Origin: Candidatus Peregrinibacteria bacterium | GTDB lineage: Bacteria > Patescibacteriota > Gracilibacteria > UBA1369 | Direction: 5' to 3' | Length of the DNA: 64,000 bases | NCBI GenBank assembly: GCA_963708185.1 | Contig: OY970195.1 | Coordinates: 1,373,034-1,437,033, forward strand | Shown here: piece by piece, positions 35,032-40,572 of the stretch | Layout: every line of letters begins with the position of its first letter | Numbering within the stretch: position 1 is the stretch's first letter | Translations under genes and position numbers: made by a program | The notes under the pieces: model-generated | The model's database searches: none | The model's input: the letters and a program-made list of their open reading frames with translations, nothing else | What the model was told of the DNA's origin: nothing

Positions 35032-35145
35032 ATATAACGTTTCGCACTGGGCGAAGTTTTGTGCTGGTATAATGTGCCGAAGGCCACCAGCGCAAAATTT
35101 GGGTGGAGTGAGTCATCGAACGGAACCGCCTAGTGCGTGTTAGCT
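35032..35145. repeat. attC-like recombination site 2 (atypical, same family as site 1)
   Basis: ATATAAC...GTTAGCT ends; CGCACTGGGCG/CGCCTAGTGCG and TTTTGTGCTGGT/ACCAGCGCAAAA stems. Confidence 0.75.
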
Positions 35146-35208
35146 GATGTATTCCTTTTCTTTTCCGACGATAGTCGGTTGTTTTAAAAATTTTCAAATT
35201 TCTTTTTC
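35139..35208 (+). repeat. Left ~70-bp inverted repeat of cassette 1
   Basis: GTTAGCTGATGTATTCCTTTTCTTTTC...TTGTTTTAAAAATTTTCAAATTTCTTTTTC is the imperfect reverse complement of 40500-40572. Confidence 0.85.
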
Positions 35209-35209
35209 C

Positions 35210-35333
35210 GTTTTGGGTGGTGGGCAGAGGGGAATTAAAGGGGTGAATGCCCGCCACCCAAAACTCCTATTTCTTTTTCGTTTGAGGAAGGGGCAAGAGG
35301 GGAACAAAAGGGGTGAATTGCCCCTTCCTCAAA
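35210..35333. repeat. Two tandem hairpins with different stems and near-identical 21-nt G-rich loops
   Basis: Stems 35210-35226/35248-35264 and 35281-35296/35318-35333; loops GAGGGGAA(TT/CA)AAAGGGGTGAA; 70-bp period. Confidence 0.85.
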
Positions 35334-35342
35334 TAGATCATC

Positions 35343-36668
35343 TTAGCTTATAATTACATCTTGTTTAGATCTAGCAATACAAAGATTGTCAATTATTGCG
35401 AAGCATTCAACATGATGATTCCCGGCATATGCAGTTGATTCTGGGTCATTTCTGGTTTTACCGTCAGTGATTTCACCACGTGGCTGAGAACAAGAGTTAT
35501 CATTCTTAACTTTCCATTTGTATTGATTTGCGCTTGTGGAATTTGCTTCTATACGGAATTTAATAGAATTTTTTTTACCTACTCGTCCGCCATTTGTACT
35601 TATTTTGTAAGCGTATTCTCTAAATCCATCTTTCTTTCGTAAATAGCCATCAATTTCAAAGCTTAGTGTGTCGTCAATGCAAACTGGAATACCAAAATCA
35701 AATAAGAATTTTTCCTCGCTCTTTCTCACATAAAAATCAACATGGAGTAATGTACTAAATTGATTTGTGTCAGTAATTTCTTCAAGTTGCATCAAAAAAT
35801 GGTCTCTTGCTTTTATAATTTGTTGTTTTTGGTTGATTGTTAATTTGGCGAGATAATCATCAATGAATTTGCCATTATTGGCCCGGTCGGCGATTTTGTT
35901 TGGATTTTCAATGATGCTTGGTAGATCAATGAAAAATCCAAAAATGGCATCAAATATTTCTAGGCCGCTATTTTCTTGGAAATATTTTGTTATGATTTGT
36001 TCTATATGAAATGATTTTAACTTTAAATTCTCATTATGTTCTGCAAGGTTCATCTTCCATGCTTTGAGTATTTTTACAGTTTTTCTGAAGTCACCTTTTG
36101 AAGTCTGGTCGGTGTCGGTGGCGACTTTGATATAGCCGCGCGGATCAGAAATTATCCAATCCATTTGTTTATGTGCTTCTGATAATTCTTTATAAAAAGC
36201 ATTTCTACGCTCACCATGCTTTTTCTTAAGTACTTCGGGGACTTTATAGGTGTCTTGCTGAAATTCATTTTTCGAATATTTAAAAGCCGGAACAATATCT
36301 ACAGAAAGAATTTCTTTGCCATTATGATAATACGTTATTGTTACAGAATGTGTTTGGAGACCGGCTTCAATATTATAGTCTGTTGGATTTTCATAATCTC
36401 TTTCAATTTGATCATATAAACTTTGCAACGCATATGCAGGACTGTGATTGACTTCATCCCAAGAGCCTAAAATATAGAGGATATCAAGATCATGTACTGG
36501 GGTAATGGAAGTAAATCGAGGATACGAGCCAATCTGTATACAGTTGTTTACGCCTAATAATTTGTTAAAAGATTCATAGACCTTGCTGATCAAAGTCTGC
36601 TCTCCTATTTTGGGAGAGAGTTTTCTCGCTTGCTCTCTAAATTGTGAATTAAGTTTATCTTTTTTCAT
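35343..36668 (-). CDS. CD-NTase (SMODS/cGAS-DncV-like nucleotidyltransferase) with C-terminal AGS-C-like domain
   Basis: QIGSYPRFTSITPVHDLDIL, SVDIVPA, SDPR, LKSFHIE; C-terminal YKWKVKN...PRGEI...ESTAYAGNHHVECF. Confidence 0.85.
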   Translation of the reverse strand: MKKDKLNSQFREQARKLSPKIGEQTLISKVYESFNKLLGVNNCIQIGSYPRFTSITPVHDLDILYILGSWDEVNHSPAYALQSLYDQIERDYENPTDYNIEAGLQTHSVTITYYHNGKEILSVDIVPAFKYSKNEFQQDTYKVPEVLKKKHGERRNAFYKELSEAHKQMDWIISDPRGYIKVATDTDQTSKGDFRKTVKILKAWKMNLAEHNENLKLKSFHIEQIITKYFQENSGLEIFDAIFGFFIDLPSIIENPNKIADRANNGKFIDDYLAKLTINQKQQIIKARDHFLMQLEEITDTNQFSTLLHVDFYVRKSEEKFLFDFGIPVCIDDTLSFEIDGYLRKKDGFREYAYKISTNGGRVGKKNSIKFRIEANSTSANQYKWKVKNDNSCSQPRGEITDGKTRNDPESTAYAGNHHVECFAIIDNLCIARSKQDVIIS

Positions 36669-37191
36669 AACTTGTCGTTATCAGAGTTGTAATAATGTCA
36701 TTCAAAAGTCTCCCGCGAAAATTAACCAGCGTTGTATTTGGCGTATTGCTTATTTCATCACGAATGTGATCTGAGATTCTATTTTCTTGGGAGAATTCAG
36801 GAAAGTAGAAAATCATACCCGCGCTACTTTTTTTATTTGAAAGAATGCTTTTTATCTGGTCTTCATTGAATGATTGATAGTGAACCAGTAGTAAATCGTG
36901 GTTTTTAACATCTGAAATTGATGCCTCTGTTATTGCGGAGCTAATATTTTTTTCTCTAAAAATCCCCGAATCGGTTAAGTCCTTTTTGAGGACAGAATAC
37001 ATATCGGGCTTTGCTACTATTGCAATTTTTCTAAACCAACGTCCATGACCTAAGCGCAAAAGTAGAGGGGTTATACCCATTAGCCAAAACACAAAATTTA
37101 GTAAAATTCCGATTAGGAGGAGGGTTGCAGATATTCCACCAAAAATTATAAAAATGGGGTGGCTATAAAAATTTAGTATCTGTTCAAGCAT
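36655..37191 (-). CDS. Putative CBASS effector: N-terminal TM plus small alpha/beta (NARF-like Rossmannoid) domain
   Basis: Hydrophobic N-terminus, then KIAIVA...DLLLVHY...MIFY...VNFRGRLLNDI; overlaps the CD-NTase start. Confidence 0.6.
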   Translation of the reverse strand: MLEQILNFYSHPIFIIFGGISATLLLIGILLNFVFWLMGITPLLLRLGHGRWFRKIAIVAKPDMYSVLKKDLTDSGIFREKNISSAITEASISDVKNHDLLLVHYQSFNEDQIKSILSNKKSSAGMIFYFPEFSQENRISDHIRDEISNTPNTTLVNFRGRLLNDIITTLITTSYEKR

Positions 37192-39038: not shown

Positions 39039-40136
39039 CTTATTTTCGTTGTGCCATTTTTTAAAGTACTTTTTTACTTTTTCTGAGGTGTTTAAGTCGT
39101 TTACATAGGATATTAAATTTTTGTAAAAAGCTTTTTTCCCATTTGGAGACATGAACAGTATCATTGATTGTAGGTATTCATAAATGTCTATAAAAAAGTA
39201 TGCCAATTCTTTGTATTGCGTGTGAGCGAGAATAAAGGAACCATAGCCTTCATGGGTCAGTGTTTCTGGTACATCTTTTGGTCTACAGATAACAAATACA
39301 TTTTTTATACTATTGTTGTATGCCATTACGGCTTCGTGAGATTCTAAGAGACGGTCATCACTAAAAAGTTTTGTTGTGATCTCATAAATAAGCTCCGTGC
39401 CTTCATTGATTTTTTCAATAATATCACCCGCTTTCTTACTGGTGGTATTTGTTGTAGAAACGCTATCTCTATGGCCAGAAACTTCGACTTTACTTCGTCT
39501 ATCCTTACCATATGTCTCCATTAGTAGACCTACAATGATCTGTGCTGTGGCACCTCCATCCGGAACGTTATTGATTAGGTCTATACACAATTTAGAGATA
39601 ATAATTGGGTTTTCTTCTGGTGGTAAATTAACGCGAAGTTCCTTCACCTTTTTTGCTTCTTGTTTATAGCGACTCACGTATGCAGCGGCAAATTTTTTGA
39701 GGTCTGGTTTGCTTACTTTTTCAATTAGTTTCACGAGCTTCACGACATGCATGGCAATCTCACCGCCATGTTTATCAGATGCCCAATCTTCGTTTATTTT
39801 TTTGGTATTTTTTGCGACATTTAAAGGGCCTGATTTTCTGTGTGGGATGCCATATTCTCGCAGTGCTTTTCTAATAGGTTTTTCAAAAAGTGACCGTGGA
39901 TTGCAGGCGTAAAAATCTTGTGAAGCTTTGAATTTTGGTTCAAATAATCTGGCAAGTATTATTGTAAGTACAATTTCACGATGGCCCCATATAGGAGTTT
40001 GAAAAAGTGGTTCTACTAAATCAGATGAAAATGGTTTATTAAAAGTAGTCACTGTTTTCTCATCAGATAGGAGTAGTTTGAGAATTTTATAAACTGCTTC
40101 ATTTCGCCCGCTGGCAGTCATCTTTTTTTCTGTCAT
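39033..40136 (-). CDS. Putative type II restriction endonuclease
   Basis: Convergent with the C5-MTase and downstream of a C-protein; AGDI...YEITTK candidate catalytic motif. Confidence 0.6.
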   Translation of the reverse strand: MTEKKMTASGRNEAVYKILKLLLSDEKTVTTFNKPFSSDLVEPLFQTPIWGHREIVLTIILARLFEPKFKASQDFYACNPRSLFEKPIRKALREYGIPHRKSGPLNVAKNTKKINEDWASDKHGGEIAMHVVKLVKLIEKVSKPDLKKFAAAYVSRYKQEAKKVKELRVNLPPEENPIIISKLCIDLINNVPDGGATAQIIVGLLMETYGKDRRSKVEVSGHRDSVSTTNTTSKKAGDIIEKINEGTELIYEITTKLFSDDRLLESHEAVMAYNNSIKNVFVICRPKDVPETLTHEGYGSFILAHTQYKELAYFFIDIYEYLQSMILFMSPNGKKAFYKNLISYVNDLNTSEKVKKYFKKWHNENKL

Positions 40137-40357
40137 ATTTCAAAAAAGTATTTAGGATCTTTTTTATAAATTTTGGAAAGTTCTATCAATTCTGCAATAT
40201 CGAGCCTTCTTTCGCATCTCTCAATTTTTGATATATATGATTGTGGCTTGCCCAAAGCACTTGCAACATCTGCTTGAGTCAGCTTCAGAGCTTCTCTAGC
40301 TTTTGAGAGCCTACTGATTATTTCCTTGTATTTTTTTGAATAGATAGTTTTATTCAT
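40133..40357 (-). CDS. XRE-family HTH, R-M controller (C) protein
   Basis: AREALKLTQADVASALGKPQSYISKIERCERRLD; ATGA overlap with the REase. Confidence 0.85.
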   Translation of the reverse strand: MNKTIYSKKYKEIISRLSKAREALKLTQADVASALGKPQSYISKIERCERRLDIAELIELSKIYKKDPKYFFEI

Positions 40358-40370
40358 GATTTAAATTGTA

Positions 40371-40402
40371 TAACCTATTACAGGATAACCCAAAATAGGT
40401 TA
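40371..40402. promoter_or_regulatory. Putative C-box operator pair
   Basis: TAACCTATTACAGGATA and TAACCCAAAATAGGTTA 15 bp apart, just upstream of the C gene. Confidence 0.55.
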
Positions 40403-40499
40403 ATGTTCCGCCGATAGGCGGAACTCCATATATTCCCCTCATCAAAAAAGCGTTTCCGCAGCGGAGCGGAGGAAACACCATATTTCCCCTTATAAAAAA

Positions 40500-40572
40500 G
40501 AAAAAGAAATTTGAAAATTTTTTAAAACAATTGGGCGATAGCCCAGAAAAGAAAAGGAATATTTCAGCTAAC
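40500..40572 (-). repeat. Right ~70-bp inverted repeat of cassette 1, ending in the attI-like core G/TTAGCT
   Basis: Reverse complement GTTAGCTGAAATATTCCTTTTCTTTTC...TTGTTTTAAAAAATTTTCAAATTTCTTTTTC. Confidence 0.8.

Follow-up and report, generated by a model that had tools for sequence, protein, structure and literature searches.

A conserved inverted-repeat shell around a probable defence-gene cassette beside an integron-like recombinase in Candidatus Peregrinibacteria

Introduction

What kind of unit is a six-gene defence block that lies between two long inverted repeats and beside a tyrosine recombinase gene? The question is posed by a 5.4-kb block at 35139–40572 of a 64,000-nt stretch of a Candidatus Peregrinibacteria genome (assembly GCA_963708185.1, contig OY970195.1); this whole stretch is called the window, and plain coordinates refer to it. 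An initial annotation, made from the letters of the window, had described a cassette with ∼70-bp imperfect inverted repeats at its ends, starting exactly at a GTT crossover. Our answer is that the block is probably a mobile gene cassette, the sole one that an integron-like capture platform holds in this Patescibacteria-type genome. Functionally it is an integron cassette, with its left boundary re-assigned and with a non-canonical integrase.

Results

Long inverted ends form a conserved shell around unrelated cargo

The block ends in two arms, 35139–35210 on the + strand and 40500–40572 on the – strand, that match with 84% identity over 70 nt (E 3.5e-13, with the whole 1,437,033-bp genome searched), which bears out the repeats first described. 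No third copy was found in that genome, where the next matches were 14–19 nt long with E >0.1. Both arms do start identically, with GTTAGCTGA, and these are its sole exact copies within the window. The repeat search resolved the arm pair into 27 nt at 93% identity (35139–35165 / 40546–40572) and 33 nt at 91% (35182–35214 / 40494–40526), with a small hairpin between the two blocks. Read on the + strand, the hairpins are CCGAC-GATA-GTCGG in the left arm (35165–35178) and TGGGC-GATA-GCCCA in the right arm (40532–40545). They thus have different stems and the same + strand GATA loop, just as the initial annotation stated. The arms and the parts adjoining them are as follows.

35139–35210: left arm, the 3' end of the cassette, consisting of a 27-nt terminus, the hairpin at 35165–35178 and a 33-nt A/T-rich block
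35210–35333: inner 3' shell, with hairpins at 35210–35264 and 35281–35333, ∼55 nt each
40404–40572: 5' shell, consisting of the arm (40500–40572, hairpin 40532–40545) and an inner part (40404–40499) of two hairpin-plus-motif units
34985–35040, – strand: degenerate second 5'-arm remnant, from alignment, covering about the first 55 nt of an arm, directly past the R' box of the attC-like site described below

The tandem hairpins of the inner 3' shell have unrelated 16–17-bp stems and a common purine-rich loop of ∼21 nt. An inverted copy of this loop motif lies beside the 5'-shell hairpins (40404–40499), and the motif could be a binding site for some factor. The remnant at 34985–35040 abuts or enters the end of murB and resembles the stump of a second shell cassette.

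The check proposed with the initial annotation, whether the repeat brackets other cargo in related metagenome-assembled genomes, came out strongly positive. Sequences 85–97% identical to the cassette ends (left ∼195 nt, right ∼170 nt) surround DNA other than the window cargo in further genera and families of this order; they are present in none of the four same-genus genomes. In genome G030, the inner 3' shell (35210–35333) is 92% conserved around other cargo, and the 5' shell (40404–40572) is 96–97% identical to the ends of other elements. The exact 23-nt arm terminus was found in at least 119 stretches of representative genomes. Record titles, tallied by hand for 80 loci among the matches listed to this terminus, name Patescibacteria lineages for 50, 'bacterium' only for 12, DPANN archaea for 2 and other phyla for 16. 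Many of the contigs are short, so some may be mis-binned. Neither shell had a match in plasmid or phage collections.

With up to three mismatches allowed in the terminus, 29 complete elements of 581–6298 bp were obtained, each with one inward-facing arm pair. The same arms flank cassettes of 581, 697, 752 and 829 bp, and so the proposal that they are an adaptation to very large cassettes has to be given up. The core of the shell is ∼72 nt per arm: the minimal, 829-bp cassette has no more than this, and the inner hairpin modules are optional. Sixteen elements had their open reading frames (ORFs) scanned. Recognisable defence domains were found in 9, namely restriction–modification (R-M), cyclic oligonucleotide-based antiphage signalling system (CBASS), HEPN, GmrSD, AbiEii-like ATPase and helicase–nuclease domains. 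Four non-defence elements carry glycosyltransferase, radical-SAM or peptidase genes (peptidase in two, one of them sub-threshold), and three small elements had no family match. No transposase domain was present in any cargo scanned.

Individual elements illustrate the range. A 6.1-kb element in G030 carries a type III R-M system and a HEPN protein and is followed by ordinary small cassettes with attCs, while a second element of that genome, ∼10.8 kb long, is truncated at its left end. The 3.6-kb element of G008 holds one helicase–nuclease gene. Ordinary ORF–attC arrays come after the element in locus L042 and occur also in L048. At ∼2830–3372 of L048 (G034:C21), an ordinary small cassette behind a window-type attC (88%) has 21-nt inverted ends, of which the first 13 nt are common with the long arms, including a TG/AA difference at positions 10–11. 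Beside the truncated 3' shell of the ∼10.8-kb G030 element, a second LexA-like S24 peptidase gene is located at L043:1890–2636, with a Zeta-toxin-family gene beyond it.

The termini coincide with recombination boxes

We collected 96 ends with the exact terminus pattern, comprising 45 CA-type 3' ends, 49 TT-type 5' ends and 2 of CT type. An AAC/GTT box was present at the terminus in 96/96, followed by attC-like or attI-like sequence. Past the 3' ends an attC follows; past the 5' ends comes a preceding attC in reverse or else attI-like sequence in which TTATGCGAA-like motifs recur. Outside 48 3' ends, an AAC..GTT hairpin of 59–141 nt closed in 31 flanks, and the same strand was the more stable in 28 of these. 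Outside 52 5' ends, such a hairpin closed in 28 flanks, with that strand more stable in 22. Over both sets of flanks, closure was at 58–152 nt. The shell is always placed the same way round: its 5' arm faces attI or a preceding attC, and its 3' arm is joined directly to an attC R'' box.

The initial annotation had named, as the contrary case, the ends of a known insertion sequence (IS) or miniature inverted-repeat transposable element (MITE) with target-site duplications independent of the GTT sites. Direct repeats abutting the termini of the 29 complete elements measured 0 nt in 18, 1 nt in 7, 2 nt in 3 and 5 nt in 1, so that a duplication is absent in 28/29. The missing duplications, together with the missing transposase in the cargo scanned, rule out an IS or MITE reading. 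A related proposal is a non-autonomous transposon: a cargo-bearing, MITE-like shell that depends on a transposase from another locus and prefers attC/attI boxes as targets. The long terminal inverted repeats, the high copy number in groundwater metagenomes, the several copies in one genome (G030) and the arm-to-arm unit common to the window and a metagenome contig (see below) would agree with it. We nevertheless consider it very improbable. None of the 96 ends lies away from an AAC/GTT box, the scanned cargo has no transposase domain, and the window's genome has one copy. In addition, excision would restore no site, the flanks being separate attC bodies or attI.

A recombinase gene, an attI-like site and an attC-like site adjoin the block

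The right end of the block faces a divergent recombinase gene, and the left end runs into a palindrome.

40573–40743, – strand: attI-like side, from homology with congeners G002 and G001
40628 to 40599: promoter-like site (Pc-like), TTCACA-18-TACAAT, reading into the cassette, 27 nt outside the 5' arm
40744–40773: the recombinase's own promoter-like site
40854–41666, + strand: tyrosine recombinase, 270 aa (PF00589, E 1.4e-44), divergent from the cassette
35036–35145, – strand: attC-like imperfect palindrome, with R'' box at 35145–35139 and R' box GTTAT at 35040–35036

Upstream of the recombinase gene, alignments of the window with G002 and G001 showed homology from CTAAC|TCCTTTC outward and unrelated sequence on the cassette side. 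Three congeners thus have three different first cassettes at one junction, G|TTAG, which in the window is 40572|40571. The best-conserved blocks of the attI side are both promoter hexamers. A G|TT junction beside the recombinase gene and a cassette promoter is the arrangement expected of insertion at attI. Recombinase orthologs at 68% identity are encoded in the same two genomes. The components of a capture platform, a recombinase gene, an attI-like site and an outward promoter, are shared with two congeners that differ in their first cassettes.

At the other end, 35036–35145 has the imperfect palindrome and the AAC..GTT inverse core boxes of an attC. Its + strand, the presumed bottom strand, folds at –22.7 kcal/mol (z –3.39; 0/200 shuffles as good), and its – strand at –17.6 kcal/mol (z –1.78). 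Copies 88–93% identical occur in cassette arrays of G034, while the site is single-copy in its own genome, indicating that the array consists of one cassette only. The position of the recombinase gene and the ORF-then-attC order in related arrays argue that the – strand is the cassette's top strand. With this polarity, the attI crossover is 40572, and 35139–35145 serves as R'' box in the attC that belongs to the cassette; in the canonical scheme the second crossover (R') would lie near 35040, not at 35139. The claim that the repeats begin exactly at the crossover is thus right for the right arm, the only arm start at which a crossover is demonstrated (40572|40571). It is not right for the left arm, which begins at the R'' box. 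An Rfam search of 34500–41800 gave no match. On inspection by eye, no dif-like 11-6-11 site was recognised at the cassette ends.

The recombinase has a tyrosine recombinase fold with catalytic residues, as judged from PF00589 and from alignment with archaeal XerA (4a8e, 5hxy), the best of the solved structures, which covers HxxR and the terminal Y region. Its residues 174–197 stand opposite residues 178–244 of the VchIntIA (Vibrio IntI4) chain in 2a3v, with ∼44 residues missing, and hence the IntI-specific insert is absent. A second recombinase, XerD/C-like and 319 aa long, is encoded elsewhere in the genome and shares 29% identity with the first. The window recombinase is therefore a dedicated paralog; the possibility that it is the dif-resolving chromosomal Xer is ruled out by this separate gene. 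Homologs with 38–56% identity lie ∼100–280 bp from the 5' arm in other loci, divergent from the cassette in L071, L078, L089, L092, L115, L118 and L125 and co-directional in L076. Among 8000 candidates scored, 7531 proteins belong to the family at E<=1e-20, and the best 120 are mostly ∼270 aa long. Some members carry the NCBI name 'site-specific tyrosine recombinase/integron integrase'.

Conserved folds and strand marks in the arms

In an in-silico junction of the excised circle, predicted stability increased from –22.2 kcal/mol for attC alone to –77.3 kcal/mol with 75-nt arms. In the predicted fold, the attC stem continues into 27 bp, the two small hairpins then create a four-way junction, and ∼33 bp follow beyond it. 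The attC hairpin would thus be extended in the circle, as the initial annotation proposed, by ∼72 bp.

Across the family, the first 27 nt and the 33-nt A/T block of the arms are nearly invariant. The small hairpin is conserved as a structure, with at least five different stems in the 3' arm and a near constant one in the 5' arm; the stems covary and the T-run is invariant. GATA on the window's + strand is present in ∼40/55 5'-arm hairpins and, on the same strand, in two unrelated 3'-arm stem types (∼14 and ∼11 ends; ∼25/47). A plain inverted copy of the 5' hairpin was seen in 3/47 3' arms. Arm positions 10–11 are TG or AA, fixed by end, with about four exceptions among 96 ends, so that one strand has T.T and G.T and the other C.A and A.A. 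The loop sequences and the TG/AA asymmetry modestly favour a role of one DNA strand. No covariation was found between the two arms of one element. Some copies of the 5'-arm hairpin have an extra stem-loop within the loop: contigs of metagenome runs X2 and X3 have 36 added letters there (at 40537/40538), and similar nested loop insertions occur in L079 and L108.

Both small hairpins gave terminator-like matches in a consensus scan, and both face inward: 35165–35178 (+) and 40545–40532 (–), each followed by TTGTTTT. A hairpin followed inward by this run makes the blocking of read-through from the outward promoter a plausible second role. Could insulation be the main role? The arms would then be inward-facing terminators, to which the 5' shell adds promoter-like inner modules. 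Read-through to be blocked from both sides would account for their symmetry, and recent spread for their near-identity. The conserved promoter 27 nt outside the 5' arm, the covarying stems with their invariant T-run and the cargo's own regulators (a LexA-like gene and a C protein) are in line with this idea. It seems quite improbable to us, because it does not account for the exact start of the repeats at recombination boxes, for the near-invariance of the 33-nt A/T block and the first 27 nt, or for a loop sequence that is strand-specific. The 5–7-bp stems are also weak, with 2 G–C pairs only in type a. Moreover, the ORF of the minimal cassette in L127 stands directly behind the arm without a promoter of its own, where a terminator in the arm would silence it.

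Signs of reassortment among arms, attC bodies and cargo

One 20.9-kb contig of metagenome run X1 contains 35137–40572 with 12 differences and 2 gaps (99.8% identity) between other flanks. On the left is a different attC body, of the type found in G030 and G008, and on the right a preceding attC. Homology breaks at 35137–35139. Since the flanks differ, the shared unit runs from arm to arm and excludes the attC body; here the cassette does not travel with its own attC. The pattern may have arisen through strand exchange at R'' and R', homologous recombination within the arms or a later attC–attC deletion. Elsewhere, loci differ in how 3'-arm hairpin types are combined with attC body types; L102 and L125 have in common the 3' arm and, beyond it, 60 nt or more of attC flank.

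These observations raise the possibility that the arm-to-arm unit is itself the mobile entity, with exchange at R' (5' arm) and R'' (3' arm) and with attC bodies swapped between events. This could happen, for example, if the recombinase did not discriminate top and bottom strands, the arms being a self-contained pair of extended recombination sites. In IntI, the specific domain reads the extrahelical bases and sets strand choice, and the window recombinase is without it. The X1 contig and the mixing of hairpin and attC body types point the same way, as does the small G034 cassette with its 21-nt ends and their TG/AA asymmetry. In L079 (58–3049), each end has an attC outside it, both in the same orientation relative to the end, as though an R'' box could be supplied by either terminus. 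We rate this explanation as unlikely. There is one well-documented case, and homologous recombination in near-identical arms or a later attC x attC deletion gives the same pattern. In eight loci with the recombinase gene abutting the arm, the orientation of the shell to attI is constant, and cargo genes run mostly from the 5' arm to the 3' arm, both of which argue that strand choice exists.

Arms could alternatively serve as homology handles, with cargo swapped between shells by homologous recombination within the conserved 130–195-bp ends and with the inverted symmetry a by-product of descent from a long palindromic attC. Both ends are 85–97% identical between genera, with unrelated cargo inside. 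L056 and L047 are 91% identical over 2.0 kb of cargo plus the 5' arm, and the homology stops at the inner edge of the 3' shell; the cargo is followed by the 3' shell in one genome and by more genes in its place in the other. We find this account hardly credible, since exchange between existing shells cannot place new cargo between arms initially and would leave the hairpins and strand-specific loops without a reason.

The order 3' arm, attC, 5' arm (75–105-nt body) was seen in 2 stretches of the metagenome contig collection, both at contig ends, and in 1 locus (L127). Arms borrowed from neighbouring long attCs, or a mobile 3' arm–attC–5' arm unit, are unsupported given this rarity, which is itself weak evidence because assemblers break at such palindromes.

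In X2 and X3, word depth was ∼950–1660 over the arms compared with 10–30 over the cargo (∼30–130x), which indicates that many cassettes in those communities carry the shell. We did not count as empty shells the joints 35215>40502 and 35260>40445 of X2 and X3, whose sides measure 29 and 23 nt and are separated by unknown letters. Parts of 34000–35027 and 40682–41700 had little or no cover in X1–X4, and no conclusion is based on this.

Cargo genes and surroundings

The G+C content of the block is 0.32–0.42, compared with ∼0.45–0.55 alongside and 0.498 for the genome. It holds six genes.

35343–36668, – strand: CBASS cyclase (PADLOC PDLC00785, E 1.5e-192)
36655–37191, – strand: CBASS effector with a single transmembrane segment (1TM; PDLC00664, E 5.9e-62)
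37302–37967, + strand: LexA-like repressor (TIGR00498, 123.5 bits, cut-off 110.95)
37971–39038, + strand: C5 methylase (PF00145, E 6.9e-69)
39033–40136, – strand: putative restriction endonuclease, 367 aa, from position only, with no family match
40133–40357, – strand: helix-turn-helix controller-like gene, the last of the type II R-M module 37971–40357

A CD-NTase-type cyclase beside an effector identifies 35343–37191 as CBASS (type I). The LexA-like repressor, which has a LexA DNA-binding domain and an S24 peptidase domain, is divergent from the CBASS pair; three more S24 loci lie elsewhere in the genome. The remaining three genes are a type II R-M module, with its endonuclease assigned by position alone. 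Profile matches thus confirm the cargo first read from the sequence (a CBASS pair, a LexA-like gene and an R-M system), apart from that assignment.

Just downstream of the recombinase gene is a tRNA-like element (41731–41802), which scored 33.5 bits against the Rfam tmRNA model (gathering score 47) and for which ARAGORN made no call. In congener G002 it is upstream of the gene, not downstream. A 75-nt direct repeat (88% identity; 40768–40842 and 41845–41919) brackets the recombinase gene and contains a –10-like TATAAT and a G+C-rich hairpin with a T-run. Genes for tRNA-Val (cac; 42793–42869) and tRNA-Arg (gcg; 42986–43062) lie on the – strand ∼1.1–1.4 kb past the recombinase gene. Cumulative GC skew of the single genome contig rises near-monotonically, with no V shape, and origin and terminus are not readable from it.

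Discussion

Comparison of genomes shows that arms of ∼72 nt, with up to 190 nt of inner shell, make up a conserved module around unrelated cargo in many genomes. We favour the reading of the window block as an integron-like cassette, captured at an attI-like site and ending in its own attC. Several observations weigh against it. The recombinase scores under both curated cut-offs: 217.9 bits against NF040815 ('site-specific tyrosine recombinase/integron integrase'; cut-off 220) and 210.5 bits, in two stretches, against the integron-integrase model TIGR02249 (cut-off 265). The additional domain around patch III, the defining feature of IntI, is not present, so that 'integron' is valid in a functional sense only. 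The X1 contig shares the arm-to-arm unit without the attC body, a pattern not expected under the canonical model, in which cassette and attC move as one. The material at hand, metagenome contigs only, showed no excised circle, no transcript and no recombination event. In ∼13 3' arms, AGCA replaces GATA. The arm duplex has only a weak strand preference: its bottom strand is more stable in 15/21, by a mean of 0.68 kcal/mol, among elements that are non-independent. Arms match no better within an element (0.771) than across elements (0.794; 1991/2000 permutations reach the observed value), giving no sign of selection for pairing inside an element. Finally, the small hairpin stems, at 5–7 bp only and some of them A/T-rich, would be poor terminators.

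How might such a shell work? Excision would bring the 3' arm, attC and 5' arm into one continuous stretch of the circle, a portable recombination module of ∼250–450 bp. Single-stranded, the module would fold into the long hairpin predicted above, and the recombinase, which has no IntI domain for reading extrahelical bases, would work at the AAC/GTT boxes contained in this longer duplex. The hairpin and T-run of each arm would also stop transcription entering the cassette from either side and so shield self-regulated, potentially toxic defence cargo. We infer that the arms extend the attC stem in the circle and may act as inward-facing terminators. They may also be a trace of how cassettes are manufactured, as first suggested.

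A bolder proposal, possible in our view though doubtful, is that the arms are a portable chassis for short, IntI-like, domain-less recombinases, such that any block between arms becomes a cassette and exchange can occur at either box. If so, the arm-to-arm unit would hop between attC bodies and arrays of Patescibacteria and, by record titles, of DPANN archaea and other phyla. In single-stranded DNA, pairing of the arms would place the two crossover points side by side. Integron-like gene capture would then have a second branch with a mechanism of its own, and cassette formation could be watched in a natural system.

The locus resembles integron cassettes in its promoter-proximal capture at attI beside a divergent tyrosine recombinase, its G|TT crossover, its imperfect-palindrome attC (∼60–140 nt in such cassettes) with one strand folding better, the ORF–attC arrays of its relatives and its anti-phage cargo. 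It differs in the missing IntI-specific domain and in what is conserved: attC plus 72–190 nt on each side in the circle, which gives the integrated cassette its long inverted ends. Sedentary chromosomal integrons have lineage-specific attC families, such as the Vibrio cholerae repeats. Here, by contrast, one and the same shell recurs nearly unchanged in many genera and, going by record titles, in different phyla. Defence cassettes in integrons are the subject of the preprint 'Mobile Integrons Encode Phage Defense Systems' (10.1101/2024.07.02.601719), as far as the portion of its text available to us goes.

Archaeal integrons offer a second comparison. In the accessible part of Ghaly et al. 2022 (PMC9668308), IntI is defined by the additional domain around patch III, attCs are 95–100% identical across domains, and 6 IntIs are reported from 75 archaeal genomes, few relative to the attC-bearing genomes. 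Like those systems, ours has attC arrays in ultra-small or uncultivated lineages; unlike theirs, its recombinase is without the patch III domain. The same part of that paper has 0 occurrences of CPR (Candidate Phyla Radiation) and does not mention extended cassette ends.

Elements moved by Xer recombinases and MITE-flanked integrons are more distant. In Acinetobacter pdif modules, inverted recombination sites enclose the genes and a Xer-type recombinase moves them in trans, and CTX-phi integrates Xer-dependently via a folded single-stranded hairpin substrate. The window cassette is likewise a discrete module with inverted recombination sites and, as in CTX-phi, a substrate that may be a folded single strand. 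Its sites, however, appear to be attC-type AAC/GTT boxes and not the 28-bp dif-like sites of pdif modules, and its recombinase is a dedicated paralog beside the array, with the housekeeping Xer elsewhere in the genome. In integron mobilisation units, MITEs flank whole integrons and make target duplications. These too are inverted-repeat elements associated with integron DNA, whereas the repeats described here are the ends of single cassettes, start at recombination boxes and make no duplication.

In a literature search, supplementary files aside, we found no description of long conserved inverted cassette ends that continue the attC stem. The terms integron, attC, cassette and integrase had 0 occurrences in the available part of one paper on gene exchange in Patescibacteria, and Patescibacteria are not mentioned in the part of the IntegronFinder 2.0 paper that we consulted.

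The main new point is that the arms form a widespread conserved shell for mostly defence cargo, by a mechanism that we infer. The shell bears on an open question, the origin of integron cassettes and of multi-gene cassettes. One module (3' arm, attC, 5' arm) on many unrelated cargos is a concrete starting point on cassette formation, as are a cargo found with and without the 3' shell at a sharp breakpoint and an arm-to-arm unit on two attC bodies. IntegronFinder detects IntI by means of the IntI-specific domain. Arrays served by a recombinase without it would therefore be scored as attC clusters without an integrase, and integron-like capture in Patescibacteria may be underestimated. Its mostly anti-phage cargo and its great abundance in groundwater metagenomes suggest that the shell is a main route by which ultra-small bacteria exchange defence genes.

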